Shown here piece by piece: positions 3,212 through 33,502 of a stretch of DNA of 64,000 bases. The notes below the pieces were generated by a model that was given only the letters and a program-made list of their open reading frames with translations, did not search any database and had not been told where the DNA came from. Origin of the DNA: a virus (lineage: Duplodnaviria > Heunggongvirae > Uroviricota > Caudoviricetes). Made by a program: the position numbers and the translations under genes. The stretch's first letter is position 1. The number at the start of each line of letters is the position of its first letter. The stretch is from positions 33,127 to 97,126 of the IMG/VR virus record IMGVR_UViG_2703718869_000013. One strand, given 5' to 3'.

Positions 3212-4027
3212 ATGAGCAAAAACTTTTTTCAATCCGGGGCATTTTTGGGGAATGGACTGTCTCGTTTCGCTTTGAACTCTGATCCTGTGCAGCTGATGGA
3301 GTCCGCCCGAGCAAGCGCCGAACAGCCAACAGATCCGGTTATTAATAATAATCCGGAACCGGCGGCACAGACTAACGATAACGTTCCATCTGATCCGGCT
3401 CCTGAGCAAATCCTGGAAGGGAAAGACGGTAAAGAATGGACCGTCGAACAGGCGCACCAGATGATTCTGGAAGCTGCAAATAGAAGTGCTATGCAGAATG
3501 CGTTGAGTGATGCGGCCGACGCCGTTTTCGCCTGGGCTGATAGCGGTGATCTGACTTTCGACTCCCTTGATGGTTTCGTTCAGGCTATCGCTGGTATCTC
3601 TGATGACGACGACTCCGAAGTTACAGAAGAACAGGACGATGCCTATAACGAAGCATGGGCAAATGTTGCTGACTTCCTCGCAGCATGCGGTGTAGATGAT
3701 GACCTGATCGAAGCACTGGCTGACGATGAAGACGACGACGCAGCTGCTGATGTTGGTGCCTCTATCGCTGGTTTAGATAGCGACGACCGCGACGAACTGG
3801 AAGCGGCGTTTGTTGTTGCTGGCACTTCTGATGAAATGCTGACTGAAGCATTTAAGAAGGTTGTTCGTAATGGTGAGATCAAACTCATCCGTAAACGCCT
3901 GCGTAAAAAACGTCTGACTGCGGCTCAAAAATCGGCGCTGAAAAAAGCACGCCGTAAAGCCCAGACCGGCGCGGCAAAACTGGCCCGCAAAAAGTCAATG
4001 AAACTGCGCCGTAAGCGCCTTGGCTAA
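3212..4027 (+). CDS. hypothetical protein with strongly acidic body and Lys/Arg-rich C-terminal tail
   Basis: 271 aa; D/E-rich runs (DDEDDDAAAD, SDDDDSE) and a basic tail (KRLRKKRLTAAQKSALKKARRK...); followed by hairpin 4033-4055. Confidence 0.5.
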   Translation: MSKNFFQSGAFLGNGLSRFALNSDPVQLMESARASAEQPTDPVINNNPEPAAQTNDNVPSDPAPEQILEGKDGKEWTVEQAHQMILEAANRSAMQNALSDAADAVFAWADSGDLTFDSLDGFVQAIAGISDDDDSEVTEEQDDAYNEAWANVADFLAACGVDDDLIEALADDEDDDAAADVGASIAGLDSDDRDELEAAFVVAGTSDEMLTEAFKKVVRNGEIKLIRKRLRKKRLTAAQKSALKKARRKAQTGAAKLARKKSMKLRRKRLG

Positions 4028-4062
4028 AGGAGGAGGCCGGAGAACTCCGGCCTTTAACTTGA

Positions 4063-4644
4063 ATGGCACCTATACCTTATGGGGTTTACAGCCAGGCTGA
4101 CGGTGTATCACCATTTCTGAAAGTTACTTTAACGAACTCTCAGTACCAGGTTACCGGATATATCAGCCAGGGAGCGGCAATGAACATGGCCCAGAATTGG
4201 GAAGCGCCGTTTACCGGTATGTCCATGGGATCTGTTTCTGGTGCTCTGGGTGGTTTTGTGCAAGTAGGTACTGAAACAACGTCGGTTGCCCGTTGGAATA
4301 GCTTAATGGTTTGGGAAGGGGGGACTCCGCCGACGTTCACGCTGCCTGTAACTTTCATTGCTTTGAACAATCCATTCATTGAAGTTTCAGGCGCTATCGC
4401 CGCGTTGACAGCCATGATTAGCCCGGAACTAAAAGCGGCCAATGTTGGTGGTCGAATCCCGGAGCGCGTGACGCTAAACATTGGTCGCCGGATCAACATC
4501 ACCGATGTCGCCATCCAGGACTTAAGTTTTGATCTCGATGCGCCAAGGGATAGTAATGGATATTTCCTGAAAAACACCGTCAACCTCCAGTTGACCGGTT
4601 CTTCGATATATAACAGCTCCGATATTGTTCGGGCGTTCCAGTAA
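4063..4644 (+). CDS. putative tail tube or tail structural protein
   Basis: 193 aa ORF directly after the sheath-like gene in the same operon; size and position only. Confidence 0.35.
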   Translation: MAPIPYGVYSQADGVSPFLKVTLTNSQYQVTGYISQGAAMNMAQNWEAPFTGMSMGSVSGALGGFVQVGTETTSVARWNSLMVWEGGTPPTFTLPVTFIALNNPFIEVSGAIAALTAMISPELKAANVGGRIPERVTLNIGRRINITDVAIQDLSFDLDAPRDSNGYFLKNTVNLQLTGSSIYNSSDIVRAFQ

Positions 4645-4655
4645 AAGGATTTTAT

Positions 4656-5165
4656 ATGGGACACAATAACACTAAGGGAAACCGTAAATTTATTAAGGGC
4701 CGCTATACTGCCAACGCGGCCAAAGGCGAACGACTGGTATCTTCTGAATTCCAGCTCACTTTTGCAGGCCGTGAAGATATCAGCGTACTGGTTCGTACGT
4801 CGCAAATTCCTGAAATGACCCGCGAGGATGTGGAGGACTATGGTCCGAATGGTGTGAAGTTCAACCAGCACGGACCAATTCGAAACTCTGGGGAAATCCA
4901 GGTCCAGTGCGTGGAGACTATCGAAGGCGATATTCTTCAGTTCATCAAGGATCGCATTGCGGCGAAGGACTATGTTGATATCACGATGGCTGCTACCCCT
5001 GAATCCAAATCTTCCGGGGTTAACGCTGTGACAAAAGCTGCTACAACAATTGAAATGTTGGACTGCAAAATCTACAGTGATGCAATCGACTTTAGTACCG
5101 AAGATGTGACTGCCGCTGTGCGCCCGTCACTTCGTATCGTTTACAACTGGATTGAGTGGGATTAA
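4656..5165 (+). CDS. putative tail structural protein
   Basis: 169 aa ORF, last gene of the + strand late operon; followed by a strong terminator. Confidence 0.35.
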   Translation: MGHNNTKGNRKFIKGRYTANAAKGERLVSSEFQLTFAGREDISVLVRTSQIPEMTREDVEDYGPNGVKFNQHGPIRNSGEIQVQCVETIEGDILQFIKDRIAAKDYVDITMAATPESKSSGVNAVTKAATTIEMLDCKIYSDAIDFSTEDVTAAVRPSLRIVYNWIEWD

Positions 5166-5208: not shown

Positions 5209-5248
5209 TGCTTAAATTATGCCGGTATAGCGAAATTTTGAGCATATT

Positions 5249-5545
5249 ATGGAAATTGATTTTTCATACTCTCCTGAAACGATAGAACGAAGATTCGAAA
5301 TAATTGGATGCAAAACTATTTCAGAGGAGCATTATTGGATTCTCTATGATGCCAATACATGGTTATGTGCCTTAGCAGAATGTCGGCCATCGTTATGTGC
5401 AGGGGAGGGAGGACTTCGACATAAGGTGCTGGCTACACTTGAAGTGAACACGTTACGATATTGGTGTGTCGAAATACTTAGGGATAACAAAGAATTACAT
5501 TTATTATTGCTGAATAAGTGTGCGCCTCTGCGCAGGAAAGCATAA
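5249..5545 (+). CDS. hypothetical small protein (AT-rich island)
   Basis: 98 aa ORF in AT-rich DNA after the terminator; weak RBS; no recognisable family. Confidence 0.3.
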   Translation: MEIDFSYSPETIERRFEIIGCKTISEEHYWILYDANTWLCALAECRPSLCAGEGGLRHKVLATLEVNTLRYWCVEILRDNKELHLLLLNKCAPLRRKA

Positions 5546-5711
5546 GAAAACCCAACCGCCATACTGGAATTATCAGAAGAATATGTGCGGAAAGTTATAG
5601 CTAGCTATTGAAAAGCTAAAGTAGATCGGTTAGATTTACTTTACTCATCTACCATGCGTAGAAAGAGCGATCGAACCCGATACATAGCAATATGTGTCGG
5701 GTTCAGCTTTT

Positions 5712-6176
5712 TTATGTCCCAAGTGCTCTTTTTCTGCTTTGTTTGAGTGTTCTGATTTTACTGTCATAGGTTACAACATAGGCTGTTTTGAGAAGCCAAT
5801 AGTCTCTACGTGCGGATAGCACAACAACGTAGTTTTCACACTCGTTCCAGATTACCCACTCTTCAGTTGGTCCTCGTCTTTCAGACCAACATGATATATC
5901 GCAATGGTCATAATTCCTTATCATATGCGCGATCCAGCGGATCCGCTTACACCGTTCAAGATCTGGTATTCGTTCTTCTTCTATTTTTCCCTCTGATACT
6001 AAATGCCAAAATCCGAACTCTTTCCCATCATATTCCGGTGAATAACGTAATCGAACAGGGAGACCCTTAAACGTTATATTAGAGATTAAAATATCTTCTC
6101 TAACAACATCATATACATCGTCTATATACTCTTGCCAACTTCCATTGAAGTACAATAAATCTGGCATTTGAAGCAT
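5712..6176 (-). CDS. hypothetical protein, downstream partner of a coupled two-gene operon
   Basis: ATG at 6176-6174 preceded by GGGAGG; its start overlaps the stop of the upstream gene (TGATG); AT-rich; no family recognised. The listed ORF extends to 6191. Confidence 0.5.
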   Translation of the reverse strand: MLQMPDLLYFNGSWQEYIDDVYDVVREDILISNITFKGLPVRLRYSPEYDGKEFGFWHLVSEGKIEEERIPDLERCKRIRWIAHMIRNYDHCDISCWSERRGPTEEWVIWNECENYVVVLSARRDYWLLKTAYVVTYDSKIRTLKQSRKRALGT

Positions 6177-6880
6177 CAGCGAGCCTCCCACACGAAAATA
6201 TTAAATTTACTTTCTGTTGGAAGAGTGCTTTTTAGTAACTCCCTGTTTGTATGTGATTTTATCCTGTTTATGACTTGGATTTTTCCCGCGTTGCTATTCA
6301 TTCCTCGATGAACGTAGCCTAACGCACCAATGAAAAGATCCGTTAGCTGCAATTGTTGCACTTCATGAGATCGTATATGTTGAATTCTGTTTATCGACTC
6401 ATGATTGTAATCATAGCGATCATTGTGAAGAACTCCTCTTAATTTCTCAATTTTTTCAATACCTAAAGTATCTTTTATATCTAGGTAGATATTGTATGTG
6501 TTGTTACTTTCTATTATGTTTTTTAAGACATAAAAAAACATCTTATAATAGAAAGTATTATGATCTTGATGGAATCGAGCATGGTCCAGTTGCTCTTTAT
6601 CAGGAACAACAACACCTCTAAAGCGCAATGCTGGGTTGCTGAAGAAGTAATCTACGACCTCTAAGTAAAATTCAACTTTGGACGCAGATACTTTAGTCCA
6701 CTTGATTTCGAAATCAGGTTTTAAATTGTGTTTTAATTTTAATCCCTTGATGTCTCTAGCAATTTTTTTTGTGATAGTGCCAGGACACCAAAGCGCACCC
6801 AATACCATGACTTTATTATGATCATTTAGTAGGTGACAGGATTCATCGCAGAATACATTAAATGTTCTTCGGTTCAACAT
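6176..6880 (-). CDS. hypothetical protein with an N-terminal FNVFCDES motif (DUF3800-like, tentative)
   Basis: 234 aa; N-terminal hydrophobic strand followed by D-E-S as I remember for DUF3800-type proteins; AT-rich; coupled to the downstream gene. Confidence 0.45.
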   Translation of the reverse strand: MLNRRTFNVFCDESCHLLNDHNKVMVLGALWCPGTITKKIARDIKGLKLKHNLKPDFEIKWTKVSASKVEFYLEVVDYFFSNPALRFRGVVVPDKEQLDHARFHQDHNTFYYKMFFYVLKNIIESNNTYNIYLDIKDTLGIEKIEKLRGVLHNDRYDYNHESINRIQHIRSHEVQQLQLTDLFIGALGYVHRGMNSNAGKIQVINRIKSHTNRELLKSTLPTESKFNIFVWEAR

Positions 6881-7048
6881 GTTAACTCCACTTATTGTTA
6901 GGTAGAATTGTCCGTTAGTTGTTTATTAATTGCAATAATTGGACGTTCTGATTTGCTAACTACGTCATCTTACCAGGACGCCTATGAGTTTTCCTCATGG
7001 CAAACTAGAGGTGTTGAAAGTATGCATGGTTATAATTAGAGCAATCTA

Positions 7049-7894
7049 TCACCCTCTGAATCCTACCGGTATACCCCATTGTTCGTTATCTTTATTTTTG
7101 GCTAATACCGCATTAAGAGCTTCGTTTACCGTCATGCAATGCGGTAGATTATCGAAGTTTGATATCCAGCCAATATCAGGAGAACGCTTGTTCTTCAGGT
7201 AAGCATATTTCCGCGCTGCCGCCTCTACTTTCTGCTTGAACTCATGTTTTTGAGCGCGTTTTTTGGATAACCGCAGATTGTCAGCCTTTGCTTTTGCTTC
7301 AGCGATCCATGAAGTCAATTTTTTGAGTCTGGTCGTTCCGGCACCGCCGGAAACTGATCTTTTTGTTTTTTTAACTTGTGACTTCTTATTCTTTATTGCC
7401 ACGTCATCCTGACAGGGGGAGGGGGTATCATTTTGACATGGGGGTGTGGATAAAAAATTAAATAAAGCCAATGTCTTAGCGAGAACAGCTTTAACCTTGG
7501 TTGCCGCTGAAGAGATCTTTAATTTGCTTTCAATCAGCGCATTTTTGGCTTGTTGTGCGAAGGCCAAAAAGGATGGTGTAAACCGGTACAGGTTAGCGCG
7601 ACGTTCACGGTGATCGCCGATAACAATCTCTACAGACAGAATTCCTTTGTTTACAGCTTCACGGAATGCACGAACGACGGTTGATTGGCTATAACCAGTT
7701 TCTGCCGCGATCAGGCGGTGAGGCTTGTGAATGAAGTATTCACTGGTTGTTGCCGCTAGATTTGCACATTGCGACAGGATATGCCCGGCGCTACGAGATA
7801 GACCGGAGTGTGTTACAAAGCAGGCCAATTCATAGCCAGAAAAAGTAAAATCGCTCATCGTTATACAGCTCAGGAAAGTGACTTTAGCCAGCAT
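7049..7894 (-). CDS. repL: RepL-like lytic replication initiator
   Basis: 281 aa, immediately downstream of a KilA-N protein as in the P1 kilA-repL operon; identification by size, position and basic C-terminal half. Confidence 0.6.
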   Translation of the reverse strand: MLAKVTFLSCITMSDFTFSGYELACFVTHSGLSRSAGHILSQCANLAATTSEYFIHKPHRLIAAETGYSQSTVVRAFREAVNKGILSVEIVIGDHRERRANLYRFTPSFLAFAQQAKNALIESKLKISSAATKVKAVLAKTLALFNFLSTPPCQNDTPSPCQDDVAIKNKKSQVKKTKRSVSGGAGTTRLKKLTSWIAEAKAKADNLRLSKKRAQKHEFKQKVEAAARKYAYLKNKRSPDIGWISNFDNLPHCMTVNEALNAVLAKNKDNEQWGIPVGFRG

Positions 7895-7923
7895 TACAAT
7901 GCTGGTGGTTCTTACTACGTCTG

Positions 7924-8724
7924 TTAGCGCGTTGCCGCGACAGGTACCAGCACACCAGCATCAAGCAATCGCTTCATCAGCCACTGCTGACCTTTGCCGG
8001 TTATACGAGTCGTGAAAGAAATCCTGCTTCCATTGCTTGTATCGATCACGGTTTCTTTAAGGGTGAAATACCCACGGGATATGTATTCTTGTTTGGGGAC
8101 GTTCCTGCGTTCACCGGTTGCGATCAGAATTCCGTTATCACGCAACCAGGTGAAGAGATAGTTTTGGCCCAGGCCGAGCACTTTGGCATAGTTGCCGATT
8201 AGAACCCCGCTGGCGGTAGCAACGCGTTCGGCGAATTCGACTTTAGGCGCATCCATAAGCATTTTTTGCTCCAGCCGTTGCTTTTGCTCTGCCAGGTCGG
8301 CAGCCAAACGGAGAGCTTCAGGGAGACTCTGCGGAATAGCAGGTTGTAATCTTCCGGCTCGATAGTCGATAAATGTCTGGTTTACCTTCAGCCGAAACGC
8401 GGGAGAAATCCAGCCTGCGTACTCCACAGCGAGCAATTCATGGGCAAACGTACCGCCGCCACGGCCTTCGAACGAAACTATGCAATTCTGCATAGTTTCT
8501 TTTTCAAGCTCTTCGATGAGCTGTTTAGCTGACAGCGTTCTTAGCCATTGAGCTGGCGCTTTATGGGCACCGAGTCCGCTCGCTCTGTGTAGAGCATTAA
8601 GGTTGTAACGGCCAGCGCGGTCGGTCGTAATTTCAACACCACAAATAACGGGCAGAGTGGTTGAAGGATCGACATTTTGATGAAGGTTTGATATATTCAT
8701 ATCCGCATTGAATGTTTGTTGCAT
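7924..8724 (-). CDS. kilA: KilA-like protein (KilA-N domain plus ANT/KilA-C domain)
   Basis: 266 aa; N-terminal KilA-N-like segment (YNLNALHRASG...KAPAQWLRT); C-terminal segment shared with the four Ant paralogs (APKVEFAERV...GKGQQWL). Confidence 0.7.
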   Translation of the reverse strand: MQQTFNADMNISNLHQNVDPSTTLPVICGVEITTDRAGRYNLNALHRASGLGAHKAPAQWLRTLSAKQLIEELEKETMQNCIVSFEGRGGGTFAHELLAVEYAGWISPAFRLKVNQTFIDYRAGRLQPAIPQSLPEALRLAADLAEQKQRLEQKMLMDAPKVEFAERVATASGVLIGNYAKVLGLGQNYLFTWLRDNGILIATGERRNVPKQEYISRGYFTLKETVIDTSNGSRISFTTRITGKGQQWLMKRLLDAGVLVPVAATR

Positions 8725-26885: not shown

Positions 26886-28805
26886 ATGGAACAGTTCAAT
26901 ATCAATAAAGGGGTGGCGATCAAGCCTGGGCTTGACGTGCTTCCCCCGCCAGTGACTGATGATGAATATCGCGCATTAATGGCCGGTGAGGACCGCTATC
27001 TGATGACGGAATCCAACACCCTGGAGGAAATCGAGGCTACGTTCTTCTATGACACGCCGATCCACTGGTGTGCTACGGATTTACTGGAGGCGATTAGTTC
27101 TACTCGTTTGCAGCTACACCGGACCATGCAGGCATTTGTCCGGGCATTGAACCAGAAGCTGAATGGTACCGGAATCTCTGCGGGGAGTGATAAAACGGGG
27201 GACGTGGCCCAGAACGGTGCACGCGCGATCGGCGGGGCTGAAATTGGCCGGGCGCGTAACGTTAACGGGCTGCCGGTTCTGCCAGCCATTATTCCGCTCA
27301 GTGATGGTCAGACTATCAGCATTCTGTTTCATAGCCCGACAGCGGAAAACCGGATCACCAATAGCGATACGCTGATTGCTTTCCAGTTCTTACTGAATAA
27401 AAAAGACGTTACTCATACCGTTGCTCCGATGAGTGGACGTGATATGACGCTGGCGCAGGTCACCATGAAACTTGCCAACCTTGCAGAGAAAAACTCGGCA
27501 AAATTCCAGCGTGCGCAGAAGAAGAAAAAAGCCCTGGTTGATGAAATAACCCAACTACAGGCTGACAGTGACCAGAAAGAGGATGCCATGAGCGACCTCG
27601 CGGATCAGGTGGCAGCGGTAGAAGGCCAGAAGGCAGATCTGGAGCAGAAAATTAACGTGGTTGCTTCGGAAGCGGATTCTCTTTATCAAGAAAATGAGCG
27701 TTTGCAGGCGGAGATTGATCAGCTCAATCGCACTGGTGGGCGCGATACCATTGCTCCTGCGGGGATGACTGGTGGGCACTCTCGCGTGCTGACGGATCGC
27801 CTTGCCAGTATCAAAAATCGTATGCATATGGACGGGGAAGCGACGCTCAGTAATGGTGCATCAATGAAGCAATTCATTGGGGATGGCGAAGGGTATATCC
27901 AGTTAACCGATCCGGATGGCAGCGTATACATGATCAAGGCTAAATCCATACAGGGTGTGGACATGGCAGATGCGATCGGCAAGCTGTTTAAAGCCTATAA
28001 AGCGGGTAATGTATCGGAATACCTGGTCCAACCAGAAGAACATAAACCGGAAAACGTCGAACCTGAACCAGCGGAGGATACCGGTAGCTCTTCGCCTGAA
28101 CCAGAAGTCTCTGTAGGTGCATATCGATATGCCCTGCAAATGCGTCCGGCGGCCCCTGGCGCAATACCTGAAGGTAACAAAGCAATTCTGCCGCGCCCTG
28201 ATGAAGGTGACCCGTATTATGAATATGCACGCTACGGCATTGCTACTTACGATACCCCGCTTTCTGATCAGCAAATGAGTGAGTACGACCTGAAGTTATT
28301 GCCTCGCGAGGATTCTTTCGACTTCCTGGCGAAGACACTTACTAATGGTCCGTTTGGCAAATATGCACAAAAAGCTCTGGATCTGGCCACCAGCTCACCA
28401 GACGAGTTCCGCGTAATGCTGAAAACTCAGTTTCAAAAAACTTTCCCCAATATTGCGTTTCCGGGGGGCGCTGGCACCGAGAAAATGGTGCAGAGCATGA
28501 TCAATGCATTGCAGGCCGAAGTCGGTGAGATTACTCAGCCAGAACCTGCCCCGGCACAGCCTGATGAAACGGTTAGCGAAGCAGATGCAGAGGCTAATAA
28601 AGCCATTGAATATCTCAATAACGTGATGGATATGCAAAGCACTGACATGGCGGAGATCCGTAACGCCCGGGGTAATGTCCGGGAAGCGATTGCAGCCCTT
28701 CAGGCTGCCGGGCGTTTTGAGGAAAACGAAGAGCTGGTTAATGGCGCTGCTCGCCACCTGGCTGATCTGCTGGTAGCAATCCAGAAAGCGGGGGTAGCGG
28801 CATGA
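26886..28805 (+). CDS. darA: DarA-like virion antirestriction protein
   Basis: 639 aa; position after lydAB as in the P1 darA operon; coiled-coil central region. Confidence 0.55.
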   Translation: MEQFNINKGVAIKPGLDVLPPPVTDDEYRALMAGEDRYLMTESNTLEEIEATFFYDTPIHWCATDLLEAISSTRLQLHRTMQAFVRALNQKLNGTGISAGSDKTGDVAQNGARAIGGAEIGRARNVNGLPVLPAIIPLSDGQTISILFHSPTAENRITNSDTLIAFQFLLNKKDVTHTVAPMSGRDMTLAQVTMKLANLAEKNSAKFQRAQKKKKALVDEITQLQADSDQKEDAMSDLADQVAAVEGQKADLEQKINVVASEADSLYQENERLQAEIDQLNRTGGRDTIAPAGMTGGHSRVLTDRLASIKNRMHMDGEATLSNGASMKQFIGDGEGYIQLTDPDGSVYMIKAKSIQGVDMADAIGKLFKAYKAGNVSEYLVQPEEHKPENVEPEPAEDTGSSSPEPEVSVGAYRYALQMRPAAPGAIPEGNKAILPRPDEGDPYYEYARYGIATYDTPLSDQQMSEYDLKLLPREDSFDFLAKTLTNGPFGKYAQKALDLATSSPDEFRVMLKTQFQKTFPNIAFPGGAGTEKMVQSMINALQAEVGEITQPEPAPAQPDETVSEADAEANKAIEYLNNVMDMQSTDMAEIRNARGNVREAIAALQAAGRFEENEELVNGAARHLADLLVAIQKAGVAA

Positions 28806-29167
28806 CACTATCAGCTATTGAGTTAATGGACCTCAGCGATAAGTTGGATGCTCTGATGTCCAAAGCGGCTACCGCGAGTGGCATGGAGTTGCTGGATATC
28901 AGCGATGAAATTGACCAGATCATGCAACAGATGGGGTACGGCGCGTCTGGCGACGGTAGTGGCGAGGAGAAACAACCTTCGGAACATGATGGTGTGCCAA
29001 AACTGGTTGCTGATTTCCTGGCTGATAAATTCGTCGATCAGAGCACCGATGCATTTATCGGTACGTTGCAGGACTTGAGTCAATATGTTGGCACATACAT
29101 CGATCTGGACCAGGTTAAACAGCACACGGCGGCATGGATAGCCGCCAACATTAAAGAGGCAGCGTGA
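28802..29167 (+). CDS. ddrA: DdrA-like small acidic protein
   Basis: 121 aa, overlapping the darA stop; acidic. Confidence 0.4.
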   Translation: MTLSAIELMDLSDKLDALMSKAATASGMELLDISDEIDQIMQQMGYGASGDGSGEEKQPSEHDGVPKLVADFLADKFVDQSTDAFIGTLQDLSQYVGTYIDLDQVKQHTAAWIAANIKEAA

Positions 29168-30514
29168 CATCCTCCACGCCCCGAAGGGCGTGGATTCCTG
29201 CTACGTTCAGGCTGTCGCCTGAATCATTTCGGTGGGTTCCTGCTTCAACGGGCGGCCTGACTGCACCATCCCTCCACAGGCAAGTACGGCGTGTCCCGCC
29301 GCTAAAATGTTACGAGCGCCGTTTACATCGGCGTTCGCTGTATATCCACATACCTGGCATCTGAATTTACTTTGTGACAGGCGATTTTCTTTCGCTGTAT
29401 GACCACAGCACGCGCAACGCTGGCTTGTGTACGCTGGCGGAACAGCAAGCACCTGACCGCCACGCCAGAGCTGCTTGTACTCAAGCTGGCGGCGCATTTC
29501 ATACCAGCCCTGATCCAGTATCGAACGGTTTAAACCTGATTTTGCCCGGACATTGCGACCCGGATGACTTATCGTTCCCGCCGCTGACTTTGACATGTAT
29601 TTAACCTTCAAATCCTCAATGACAATCATTGCGTGGTTTTTGCTGATGATCGTTGTGACTTTATGAAGGTAGTCTCTGCGGATATTTGCGATACGAAAAT
29701 GCAGTCGCTGTATTTTGCGTTTCTGCTTCTGCCAGTTGTTGCTGAATTTGACCTTGCGGCTTAACTGTCGCTGAAGTCTCGCCAGCTTCTTCTGGTTTTT
29801 CTGAAAACTGTTTACAGGCTCAAAGACTGTGCCATCTGACAGCGTGGCGAGTTTAGCCACGCCAGCATCCAGCCCGATCATTGATGCTGAAGGGTGAACC
29901 GGAGTGGATATTTCACTTTCTGTCTGAATACTGATGTACCACTTACCGCAGGACTGGCTGACAGTGACATTTTTCACAACTCCCGTGACCTGACGGCTAT
30001 TCCGGTAGCGCATCCAGCCCAGTTTCGGCAGAAAAATACGGCTGTTTTCCTGATCGAGCTTAACGCCCTGCGGGTAGCGAAATGCATCATTCTGTCCCCG
30101 CTTTTTGAATCGGGGAAAAGCAGCCCGATTCTGGAAGAAGTTTTTGTAAGCCCGCTCAAGGTCTTTCAGTGACTGTTGCAATGGCTGTGAGGGAGAATCT
30201 ATAAGCCATTCGGTTTCAGTGTCTTTTTTCCACTCAACCAACCAGGAAGCCATTTTCGTGTAAGGGATGTATTTTTTACCGGCCTCATGATTCTCATTCT
30301 GAAGCGCCAGAGCACGGTTGAAAACGAAACGACAAGCTCCGGCAAAGTGCCTCATTTGACACTCCTGTTGACCATCTGGTTTTAACCGGAATTTGAATGA
30401 CACCTGTTGTTTCATGTCACTATTTTAAGCAAAAATAGCCGGGAGGAAAACTGTGCCTTATATCCCCACTATGAGGAGCGTAGGGGGCGGCACATTGGAT
30501 AAGGCGTAACAGGG
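29168..30514 (-). mobile_element. IS200/IS605-family insertion element carrying tnpB only; boundaries approximate
   Basis: TnpB ORF with flanking non-coding DNA inserted between ddrA and ddrB; subterminal hairpin ccacgccc cgaa gggcgtgg at 29174-29193; no tnpA ORF seen. Confidence 0.55.
29207..30415 (-). CDS. tnpB: TnpB (OrfB) RNA-guided nuclease-type transposase-associated protein
   Basis: 402 aa; RuvC-like motifs ([21 protein letters not shown]) and C-terminal zinc finger CACCGH...CQVCG. Confidence 0.85.
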
Positions 30515-33502
30515 ATGAGCTTAAGCGATCAGGTGGTAATGGCCACCAGCATAGAAACGCTGATCGAGCTGCTAAAGAACCTGCCCGATTATGGGCGGGT
30601 TTCGTATGTGGTGACAGCGAAGGGAGACGAGGTAAAAACAGCGTTTGATATCGTCGATGCCTCAGTTCTTTTGGTATCCAATACTCTGGATGGGAAAATT
30701 AATCCAGACTATCCCCAGGAACTTCAGCCGCGCGACCGGACCCGCGCATCCAGCCTTCTTCAGGTTAACCAGATATCCAAAGATTTGCGGCCTGCTCAGC
30801 TTACCGATTCCGGTTTATCCAGCCATGGCGCGCCGATAATTGGTGAGGACAATGCCGTTGAGTCAGGTAATGGACGGACCATGGGGATCATCAAAGCCTA
30901 TCAGGACGGCAATGCGGATCGGTATCGTGAGTACCTGATTGATCATGCGACCGAATTCGGCATACGACCTGAAAAGGTTGAATCAATGACGGCTCCGGTA
31001 CTGGTGCGCCGCCGGTTAACTAAGGTTGACCGCGTTCAGTTTGCCAAGGACTCAAATATTTCTGATCTTCAGGAAATGGCAGCCAGTGAAAAGGCTTTTG
31101 TTGATGCCGACAGCATAACACCGGCGATGATGGCGCTTTTTAACCCGTCAGAAAGCGGAGATCTGCTTAGCCGCAGTAATGACGCGTTTATTCGCGGATT
31201 TATGACGCAAGTTGGTGCCACACAGGCGGCTGGCCTTGTAACTGAAGATGGGCGACCAACACGGCAACTTGTTGACCGTATACAAAACGCGATCTTTGCC
31301 AAGGCATATAAGGATGCGCGCCTGGTAAGGATGGTTGCAGAAGAACCTGATCCGGATATGCGTAATGTTCTGACGGCGCTTAATGCGGCAGCCAATGATT
31401 TTGTCCAGATGCAGGCTTTATCAGGAGAAGCGCACAAGCAGGCTGTGACAACTATTGTTGATGGCATTGAGACAGCGGATAGCCTCGATAAAAAGGCGCT
31501 GGCGGCATTGAAAGATGCGGTAGACCTGGTAAGGCAATCGAAGGAGTCAGGCCAGCATATTACCGATGTTATTGCTCAGGGGGATATGTTCAGCGAAACG
31601 GCCCCGGAAGTGAAAGCACTCGCGTTGTTCATCGTCGCGAATAACCGTAGCGCGAAGCGTATGGCCACCGCCTTTAAGTTGATGGCGCAACGTATCAATG
31701 ATGAGTTACAGCACCAGGGCCAGGCGCTCGGGGATATGTTTGGCGGCGGCGATGTGTCGTTACAGGATATCCTTCGCCAAGTATCTCAGGAACTGGAAAA
31801 CGAAGGTATGCAAGGGATATCTGGCGGTCTTTTCGAGTCAGCTTCTGGCGGTAGTTACAACGGTGTTGCTCCATATACCAGCTTGCTATTACATCGGGCA
31901 TCCGGCATCAAAGACATTATTCATCTGATCAGGCTGCTTTCCCGTACAGATCCCCAGGATGAACAGCTTGTTCAAGTGCTTGCGCATTTTGTTCGAATGC
32001 CTGTTGCCGACGTGAAAAAATGGTGCCGATTATTCGGTATCAGCAATTCGTTACTTCGCGGCTTGTTAAATCACGCATCCTCCCTTGGGCGCGATGGCTT
32101 TGACGAGATAGCGCAGGCGATAAAAAACGGAGATATGCCACCAGCTATTGACTGGTTTTCCATTCGCCCAACCAGGGTGAAAGCATTCCTTAGCGCGGCG
32201 CATTCGGCATCACCATTGGCAGAAATGGTTCAGAGGTTATCGCTCATATTCACAGACCATACCGCGTTGGGTGATCTGACTCTGGACGAGATGAAAGAAG
32301 CCTCCATTCAGTGGGCCGATCAACAAAATGAGGTTAACTCAGACTTCTTGCCAGCATTCAGGAAGGCCGTTAGTAAAGCGGATGATGCCCGTGGAATTCT
32401 GAAGGCATTTAAGGCATTGCAAAGTCGGGTTAATAAACATGTCGGTGATATCGATGGGGTAACGGCGGAAGGCAGGGATATCCTTAAAGAGCACGGCATA
32501 ACGCCAGAGTTTATTGATGAGATCAGGACGGATATGCAGCGTGAGGTCGTATCGTCCCTGCAAATTGTAGTCAGAGCGTTGGCGGATGCTAATCCGAAGA
32601 GTGCGGCCATTGTTAACCGGGTTATTGGTGATATTGAAGCATCGGAGGGCATGGGGGCGCTGAAACACTTCCTTTCGCGAGCGTTTAATCCTAACGGCAA
32701 TATTCTCCCCGGCATTATTGGTGAGGCTAAAAAGTATGTCAGCGAAGAAGAACTTGAGCATCTTGACCAACTACTTAAGCGATTCTCATATAACCCGCAG
32801 ACACGCTGGCAAATGAATCAGCGAAGTATGGGTTCGGTCCACGAGAAAGTGTTATCCGCCATGAACAGTGCGATCGCCAACTCATCCGTATCTGAAGAAA
32901 AAGCTCTTGAGTGGGCCGACTCTTTTATCACGGAAGAAGTGGAAGAAGCCCGCGCTGGACAGAATGGTGGGATAGACCTGCGCAAGGAACTTGCTGATAT
33001 TTATCGCCTGACCGGCGGTAAAATTTCGACCTTATCAAAGGTGGTTCACCACCAGGGAAGGGCATATGCAAATCTTAATGGTGTTGTTGCTGTCAATTTG
33101 AACGATGAAAATGCAAGTGCACTGTGGCACGAGCTGGGTCATCATCTTGAGTACAGTAACCCAGGTTTGTTAGAGAAAGCCCGGTCATTCCTGAAGGCCA
33201 ATGTTGAAGGGGATAAGCCATCTTTCGTCAATATCGGTGGGCGTGGCAAGCCTGAATGGTGCTTCAGATCTCGATTGAGTAATATTTATATGGCGAAGGT
33301 ATACCCGCCAGCCTCAGTAAGTAACACCGGGAAAATTCGGCAGAAATCACCGACTATTTCCAAAACGTCAGCAACGGAAGTATTCTCTATGGCTCTTCAG
33401 TTGTATCATGGCAAAGAGGCCGCTGCCGCATCACTGATGAATGGTGACGGATTGCTGGAACTGTTATTAGGTGTGGCAAAGGAGCTAAATAATGCAGATT
33501 AA
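30515..33502 (+). CDS. ddrB: DdrB-like large protein with HExxH motif
   Basis: 995 aa; position in the dar operon; HELGHH at 33128-33145. Confidence 0.45.
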   Translation: MSLSDQVVMATSIETLIELLKNLPDYGRVSYVVTAKGDEVKTAFDIVDASVLLVSNTLDGKINPDYPQELQPRDRTRASSLLQVNQISKDLRPAQLTDSGLSSHGAPIIGEDNAVESGNGRTMGIIKAYQDGNADRYREYLIDHATEFGIRPEKVESMTAPVLVRRRLTKVDRVQFAKDSNISDLQEMAASEKAFVDADSITPAMMALFNPSESGDLLSRSNDAFIRGFMTQVGATQAAGLVTEDGRPTRQLVDRIQNAIFAKAYKDARLVRMVAEEPDPDMRNVLTALNAAANDFVQMQALSGEAHKQAVTTIVDGIETADSLDKKALAALKDAVDLVRQSKESGQHITDVIAQGDMFSETAPEVKALALFIVANNRSAKRMATAFKLMAQRINDELQHQGQALGDMFGGGDVSLQDILRQVSQELENEGMQGISGGLFESASGGSYNGVAPYTSLLLHRASGIKDIIHLIRLLSRTDPQDEQLVQVLAHFVRMPVADVKKWCRLFGISNSLLRGLLNHASSLGRDGFDEIAQAIKNGDMPPAIDWFSIRPTRVKAFLSAAHSASPLAEMVQRLSLIFTDHTALGDLTLDEMKEASIQWADQQNEVNSDFLPAFRKAVSKADDARGILKAFKALQSRVNKHVGDIDGVTAEGRDILKEHGITPEFIDEIRTDMQREVVSSLQIVVRALADANPKSAAIVNRVIGDIEASEGMGALKHFLSRAFNPNGNILPGIIGEAKKYVSEEELEHLDQLLKRFSYNPQTRWQMNQRSMGSVHEKVLSAMNSAIANSSVSEEKALEWADSFITEEVEEARAGQNGGIDLRKELADIYRLTGGKISTLSKVVHHQGRAYANLNGVVAVNLNDENASALWHELGHHLEYSNPGLLEKARSFLKANVEGDKPSFVNIGGRGKPEWCFRSRLSNIYMAKVYPPASVSNTGKIRQKSPTISKTSATEVFSMALQLYHGKEAAAASLMNGDGLLELLLGVAKELNNAD

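Follow-up and report, generated by a model that had tools for sequence, protein, structure and literature searches.

The 64,000-nucleotide stretch analysed here (the window; positions 33,127 to 97,126 of the IMG/VR virus record IMGVR_UViG_2703718869_000013) carries an insertion sequence (IS) between the genes ddrA and ddrB of a P1-like dar operon. This IS, an IS609-like member of the IS200/IS605 family, is non-autonomous and has tnpB as its only gene. It was inserted once, on the minus strand and 3′ to the tetranucleotide TTAT, in an ancestral P1-like phage-plasmid. Overall, the data are best explained, with a probability of about 85%, by a single old insertion that is now fixed in place, retains an intact tnpB under selection and has a putative omega-RNA.

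A 3.1-kb query taken round the site matched RCS47, SJ46 and vB_EcoM-813R1 end to end, and matched P1, P7, JL22, phi456 and others in two pieces, the middle being missing. The site is cleanly empty in phage P1, P7 and most relatives. In P1, it reads GCAGC/ATAAGGCGTAAC, and 1,335 bp separate GCAGC from ATAA in the window; the wider P1 junction reads …AAAGAGGCAGC/ATAAGGCGTAACACGGATG… (slashes mark the insertion point). An earlier note, made from the letters of the window, had placed a TnpB-only IS200/IS605-type insertion between ddrA and ddrB on the minus strand and had proposed a comparison with related P1-like genomes. The 402-aa open reading frame (ORF), its family matches and the empty junction of P1, P7, JL22 and phi456 bear out the insertion, and the comparison defined both the ends and the target site. 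The interval given for the element in that note, 29168-30514, is the intergenic gap; the true bounds are 29164-30498, which differ by 4 and 16 bases. No further copy of the element is present in the 64-kb window.

Independent copies elsewhere start with CCGGTGCGCCG… and end with …GGAGGATGTCAA. TTAT stands 5′ of the left end (LE) in six of seven of them. Those preceded by TTAT include copies at K-12 ydcO, yedK and yfeD, in a Morganella prophage and on plasmid pE148-2, and the exception is plasmid pESI, with TTAC. As in other members of the IS200/IS605 family, the element lies 3′ of a specific tetranucleotide, has subterminal hairpins at both ends and shows neither a target duplication nor terminal inverted repeats. 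For IS609, the published cleavage sites are TTAT (left) and TCAA (right; Venturini 2019, PMC6906374), with which the window junctions agree in lacking a target duplication and in having TTAT.

The 402-aa protein has the domain architecture of TnpB (HTH/WED-REC, split RuvC and zinc finger). It matched the Pfam families OrfB_IS605 (E = 4e-33), Cas12f1-like_TNB (E = 2e-24) and HTH_OrfB_IS605 (E = 1e-14), with PF12323, PF01385 and PF07282 all above their gathering scores, and it reached 384 bits against a cut-off of 100 with the NCBIfam model guided_TnpB (NF040570). Such scores are well outside the range of chance matches, and the family assignment is unambiguous. ISDra2 TnpB (PDB 8bf8) aligned over residues 5-376 (E = 2.4e-50). 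In this alignment the RuvC D/E/D triad and the four zinc-finger cysteines (CxxC…CxxC) correspond, so that the RuvC catalytic residues, whose absence would have spoken against the earlier note, are present. A nuclease-dead TnpB repressor of the TldR type was ruled out, the triad and the zinc finger being intact and the protein full length. The 402-aa ORF, the D/E/D residues and the zinc-finger cysteines are kept in 14 of 15 copies at the ddrA/ddrB site, with 813R1 as a frameshifted exception. Between tnpB alleles, the ratio of nonsynonymous to synonymous substitution rates (dN/dS) is 0.17-0.19. This ratio, together with the retention of ORF and catalytic residues, points to purifying selection on tnpB, which probably encodes an intact RNA-guided nuclease. 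Other workers have purified IS609 TnpB as a candidate nuclease.

The filled site was found in about 72 plasmids of PLSDB, as compared to about 356 with an intact empty site, and IMG/VR contained 14 exact filled and 61 exact empty junctions. The insertion is thus carried by ~17-19% of P1-like elements in the two collections. Several IS alleles exist, with pairwise differences of up to 4% as compared to 1-2% in the flanks. Nucleotide diversity is 2.4% in the IS and 1.7-2.0% in the 1-kb flanks; diversity within filled sites, diversity within empty sites and filled-empty divergence are all equal. A recent spread of the IS, which predicts low diversity, was rejected because alleles differ by up to 4% and exceed the flanks in this respect. 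The allele divergence argues instead that the insertion is old. The allele differences form a mosaic and are in part shared with chromosomal insQ alleles, a pattern suggestive of gene conversion. The element appears to persist as a presence/absence polymorphism that recombines freely with its flanks. The darA/ddrA/ddrB region of P1-like genomes is itself extremely mosaic, with ~2% diversity.

An autonomous element of this family needs the Y1 (HuH) transposase TnpA. Using two IS609-type TnpA sequences as tblastn queries, no tnpA was found in the 64-kb window (best E = 0.26). The element is therefore non-autonomous, as the earlier note had held. That note had also suggested the hairpin at 29174-29193 (CCACGCCCCGAAGGGCGTGG) as a right end (RE), and homology with the RE hairpin of other copies shows this to be correct. 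The DNA hairpin is strong (-14.1 kcal/mol, z = -2.6). The RE finishes with TCAC (29164-29167) in the window and in all copies at the site, rather than with TCAA, the end of 10 of 10 copies at other sites, including 77%-identity relatives from Klebsiella, Pantoea and Citrobacter. At the other side, 83 nt separate the LE tip from the tnpB start. From GGGGATATAAGGC onward the LE is homologous to other tnpA-less IS609 copies. Its first 31 nt, comprising the 5′ arm of the hairpin and an A-rich spacer, are far from the canonical CCGGTGCGCCGTAAAACCCCGTCCTTCAGGGC and have been replaced or have diverged. The LE still has a hairpin, but a weak one (-10.6 kcal/mol, z = -1.5) that has diverged from that of the canonical LE in a K-12-type copy.

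A similarity search found five genomes with a filled site (RCS47, 813R1, SJ46, a plasmid of E. coli MBT-5 and one of E. albertii), and the diverged LE and the TCAC end are common to all of them. Of 5,426 complete E. coli genomes, 64 contain the LE variant, on plasmids in all cases and never on the chromosome. Its full-length matches in PLSDB are Escherichia and Salmonella plasmids, mostly non-mobilizable. Outside the ddrA/ddrB site, the LE/RE variant was found neither in the 5,426 E. coli genomes nor in PLSDB. This confinement to one site argues for a single old insertion that is now seemingly immobile. Of the two records with two LE-variant matches, NZ_CP029117.1 and NZ_CP021729.1, the first was checked. 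The double match in NZ_CP029117.1 was rejected as evidence of transposition, since it lies at the same ddrA site in a redundant, error-rich end of a linear assembly. This record (E. coli AR435 plasmid unnamed4) is a 'complete' RefSeq plasmid, yet linear. Frameshifted or fragmented genes crowd both its first ~10 kb and its last ~13 kb, and the region from tnpB-ddrA to the tail fibre, intact at 97-108 kb, recurs in the first ~10 kb, which looks like an untrimmed long-read overlap.

In IS608, GAAT lies 5′ of the RE hairpin and TCAA is the cleavage site, and canonical IS609 copies have the same. The tetranucleotide 5′ of each IS608 hairpin reportedly pairs with the cleavage tetranucleotide, according to the work of Barabas, Dyda and Chandler. 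Canonical IS609 fits this rule at both the LE (AAAA/TTAT) and the RE (GAAT/TCAA). Under the same rule, the replaced LE spacer and the mutated RE site of the window element suggest a loss of excision, and by this analogy the element would no longer be excisable, even with TnpA supplied in trans. The chromosomal insQ copies that we examined carry a divergent, truncated tnpA pseudogene, of which the element has no trace. The same 426-nt pseudogene is found at three E. coli chromosomal loci (ydcO, yedK and yfeD; 1552-1977 of each). An intact transposase was seen in none of the insQ copies examined; the family is present in 92% of complete E. coli genomes, at a median of 2 places per genome.

Two observations concern hairpins of the element. 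The loop of the RE hairpin (29182-29185) is flipped between alleles that are otherwise nearly identical: the window, RCS47 and 813R1 have TTCG, and the MBT-5 plasmid, SJ46 and the E. albertii plasmid have CGAA. It is the entire palindrome that has been inverted, presumably by template switching. This flip makes four of the six differences between the window and one of the copies compared (L011). In the tnpB 5′ untranslated region (UTR), a perfect 8-bp hairpin (GCTATTTT-TGCTT-AAAATAGT; 30419-30439, minus strand) stands just upstream of the start codon and could occlude the ribosome-binding region of tnpB. The pE148-2 copy has a less regular form of this hairpin.

Together with the RE, the 3′ end of tnpB, proposed as a source of omega-RNA in the earlier note, makes a plausible omega-RNA scaffold at ~29164-29313. 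On the minus strand at 29151-29334, sub-threshold Rfam matches were obtained with HgcC (22.6 bits), RAGATH-18 (28.1 bits) and sot0042 (17.3 bits). HgcC and sot0042 are RNAs whose genes overlap tnpB genes at the 3′ end. A 253-nt stretch folds better than its shuffled versions (RNA fold z = -3.66), and the consensus fold of nine relatives contains 45 pairs, four of them with compensatory changes. In the ISDra2 paradigm, the guide is the sequence directly 3′ of the RE. The corresponding 16 nt here, GCTGCCTCTTTAATGT, match the window only at their own junction, where TCAC replaces TTAT. The identical sequence is found in the empty-site genomes, preceded there by TTAT.

These features allow a mechanism to be sketched. 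TnpB would process the 3′ end of its own transcript into the omega-RNA, with the adjacent 16 nt of ddrA as guide. The ribonucleoprotein would recognise TTAT followed by GCTGCCTCTTTAATGT, that is, the uninterrupted ddrA-ddrB junction of IS-less P1-like genomes, and the carrier genome would be spared by having TCAC in place of the target-adjacent motif (TAM). Cleavage of the IS-less allele followed by recombinational repair would help the insertion to be retained or to spread. During co-residence or superinfection, TnpB could cut an IS-less rival, which would then be either converted by recombination (homing) or eliminated. An immobilised TnpB-only element might in this way act as an RNA-guided gene drive, or a competition weapon, among P1-like phage-plasmids; we regard this proposal as doubtful. 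If true, it would explain why an element with no transposase and damaged ends keeps an intact and selected nuclease, and why identical IS alleles occur in different flank haplotypes. The exact target, guide plus TTAT, exists in ~80% of P1-like genomes as the IS-less allele. Where IS alleles are identical, their flanks diverge within 50-170 bp of the element, and linkage disequilibrium (LD) between IS presence and single-nucleotide polymorphisms (SNPs) of the flanks was ~0 (1-kb flanks, window ~28160-31500; 62 empty and 15 filled P1-like loci). Between SNPs of the same flanks, the baseline r2 is ~0.2 at 51-100 bp and ~0.1 at 100-200 bp. We do not claim a homing signature in the tract structure, because the SNP-SNP baseline decays likewise and homing would give the same pattern as background recombination. 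Should TnpB and its omega-RNA be active, P1-like phage-plasmids would offer a handy natural system for RNA-guided homing between competing mobile elements.

Several points weigh against our overall interpretation. Among the curated families of Rfam, no omega-RNA match reached its gathering threshold. The covariation comes from nine sequences and four pairs, in a region that is partly coding, and both the omega-RNA and the TAM are proposed by analogy with ISDra2 and IS608. The linkage analysis does not set the IS apart from ordinary SNP pairs. The filled IMG/VR copies were fetched by their exact junction pattern, so that their agreement in the TCAC end and the guide is built in. The low dN/dS could be partly imported by gene conversion from copies selected elsewhere, and the frameshifted tnpB of vB_EcoM-813R1 shows that the gene is dispensable. 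Finally, the argument for immobility uses end-recognition rules taken over from the literature on IS608.

In another explanation, the insertion is an inert relic, a dead IS fragment that hitch-hikes neutrally while TnpB and any omega-RNA stay idle in the phage-plasmid. The missing tnpA, the diverged LE, the mutated RE cleavage motif and the 813R1 frameshift all fit it, as does the flipping of the RE loop between alleles with no apparent consequence, and linkage equilibrium between IS and flanks is what an old, neutral polymorphism would show where recombination is frequent. Such a relic would hardly have kept the full ORF and the catalytic and zinc-binding residues in 14 of 15 copies across up to 4% nucleotide divergence, with dN/dS at ~0.18, and the pairing in the scaffold region is kept across relatives of 77% identity. 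We therefore consider the relic possible but not probable. At the opposite extreme, the insertion could be recent and still mobile, with a host TnpA excising and transposing it in trans. Hosts do contain relatives, since 5,015 of 5,426 E. coli genomes have insQ-type elements, and an independent IS609 insertion exists elsewhere in P1-like plasmids, between prt and lyz. Given that the chromosomal tnpA copies examined are truncated pseudogenes, that the LE/RE variant was found at no other site in the 5,426 E. coli genomes or in PLSDB, that the derived end changes are common to all copies and that the alleles have had time to diverge by up to 4%, continued mobility is highly improbable.

It might also be argued that the insertion is mainly a polar lesion, reducing the expression of ddrB and impairing the Dar anti-restriction phenotype; polarity on ddrB had been suggested in the earlier note. 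It places 1,335 bp of untranslated antisense sequence between two genes that are 12 nt apart in P1, which would remove translational coupling and expose the transcript to Rho, and a weak terminator-like site lies on the plus strand at 29781-29796. Against this, terminator-like sites are at shuffle expectation (2 versus a mean of 2.1), no T-run follows the RE and LE hairpins on the plus strand, and the insertion is old and present in many backbones among the ~17-19% of P1-like elements that carry it. The 995-aa ORF of ddrB is intact in the window, RCS47, SJ46 and two plasmids examined, and the AAGG that precedes its ATG stays with it. No strong terminator or outward promoter was found in the element, the counts of terminator-like and promoter-like sites being those expected from shuffling. 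Strong intrinsic polarity on ddrB is thus not indicated by the sequence, and we hold a mainly polar role to be distinctly unlikely. The single old insertion, with its selected tnpB, remains the preferred explanation.

At its right side the element donates a stop codon to ddrA. In P1, the target (ATAA on the plus strand) is made of the last base of the final ddrA Ala codon and the TAA stop. In the window, the TGA stop of ddrA (29165-29167) is inside the RE. The RE (…TCA-C/G) has rebuilt the Ala codon and supplied TGA, so that DdrA is unchanged, with 121 aa and the same …KEAA-stop end. The original TAA is now 1.3 kb off, a short way upstream of ddrB (30500-30502). Had the end been the canonical TCAA, the result would likewise have been Ala-stop (GCT TGA). 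In vB_EcoM-813R1, ddrB (5238-8200) is annotated as two ORFs and tnpB (3908-4933) is frameshifted by two 1-nt deletions; either both genes flanking the LE are disrupted or the record contains sequencing errors. All features are collected in Table 1.

Table 1. Coordinates of the element and of its neighbourhood in the window
Feature	Position	Strand	Basis or remark
IS609-like (IS200/IS605 family) TnpB-only element, 1,335 bp	29164..30498	-	empty-site comparison with P1; ends from alignment with independent copies elsewhere
Target and presumed TAM, TTAT (ATAA on plus strand), directly 5′ of LE	30499..30502	-	in P1, contains ddrA stop TAA
LE and tnpB 5′ UTR	30416..30498	-	diverged subterminal hairpin region 30452-30494; first 31 nt lineage-specific
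tnpB (insQ-type) coding sequence, 402 aa; RuvC D183/E267/D363; zinc finger C334/C337/C353/C356	29207..30415	-	
RE: GAAT + hairpin CCACGCCC-TTCG-GGGCGTGG (29174-29193) + AGGATGTCAC	29164..29206	-	
Predicted omega-RNA scaffold (tnpB 3′ end and RE)	29164..29313	-	weak Rfam matches, fold, covariation
Predicted 16-nt omega-RNA guide GCTGCCTCTTTAATGT	29148..29163	-	reverse complement of last ddrA codons; directly 3′ of RE
ddrA, 121 aa	28802..29167	+	third base of last codon and stop (G-TGA, 29164-29167) from IS right end
ddrB, intact 995-aa ORF	30515..33502	+	16 nt upstream (ATAAGGCGTAACAGGG) still attached

Other copies and fragments of the family were met during the searches. P1-like plasmids have a second, independent IS609 site, between prt/pro and lyz (pE148-2, 1500-2810; pJIE250-3, PMC6906374). 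The pE148-2 copy, next to the head-processing gene prt/pro, has the canonical ends TTAT…TCAA, and its site is empty in the window. Filamentous phage If1 (U02303/NC_001954, 6413-7055) contains a 643-bp internal fragment of tnpB with 95.5% identity, annotated as ORF348, and Aeromonas phage AP1 (254-kb record, 238144-238434) has 291 bp at 96%. These two fragments were unexpected and may reflect capture or contamination. A K-12-type insQ copy (in L006) directly follows a GC-rich, terminator-like hairpin with a T-run downstream of ydcL (1462-1489; GCGCCATCGTTAGATGGCGCTTTTTAT, up to the junction), and its TTAT target is the end of that T-run.

The insertion itself is already known. GenBank and RefSeq entries, among them RCS47, SJ46, 813R1 and many RefSeq plasmids, already list the very same insertion under the labels insQ, IS605/IS609 transposase or TnpB, and IS609 insertions or IS609-like sequence were described in the P1-like plasmids pJIE250-3 and pSvP1 (Venturini et al. 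2019, PMC6906374). Papers on SJ46 and on comparisons of P1-like phage-plasmids pass over the insertion, and that study alone mentions it. Our analysis adds the precise junctions, the stop codon donated to ddrA, the degradation of both ends, the single origin of the insertion, its frequency and the selection acting on tnpB. The annotation value is small, and the element, though real, is ordinary.

As compared to known systems, the element is closest to IS609 (E. coli insQ/ydcM), with which it shares ~94-95% nucleotide identity over tnpB and RE, TTAT as left target and the architecture of the RE (GAAT-hairpin-AGGATGTCA-). The 1.34-kb plasmid copies of IS609 share the tnpA-less layout, whereas chromosomal insQ copies carry the divergent tnpA pseudogene absent here. 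The window element differs from IS609 by the replaced or diverged first 31 nt of the LE and by C instead of A as last base of the RE, a variant found only at ddrA/ddrB. With the TnpB-omega-RNA system of ISDra2 from Deinococcus radiodurans (PDB 8bf8, 8exa, 8h1j), it shares a full-length protein alignment, the conserved D/E/D and CxxC…CxxC residues and the layout of the gene end, in which the tnpB 3′ end and RE are followed by flanking DNA as would-be guide. The TAM would be TTAT, as deduced from the target site, rather than TTGAT, and in ISDra2 a functional tnpA is present. IS608 of Helicobacter pylori, the model for end recognition by TnpA, also inserts 3′ of a tetranucleotide without duplication; its left target is TTAC rather than TTAT, and the window element lacks tnpA and has changes in both end signals. 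Finally, a functional analogy can be drawn with the homing endonuclease genes and mobile introns of T-even phages: a nuclease gene stands between phage genes, its product would cut the uninterrupted allele of related phages, and its presence or absence is a polymorphism unlinked to the flanks. Recognition would here be guided by RNA rather than by protein, and homing by the ddrA/ddrB element is hypothetical; its LD pattern is that of the background.

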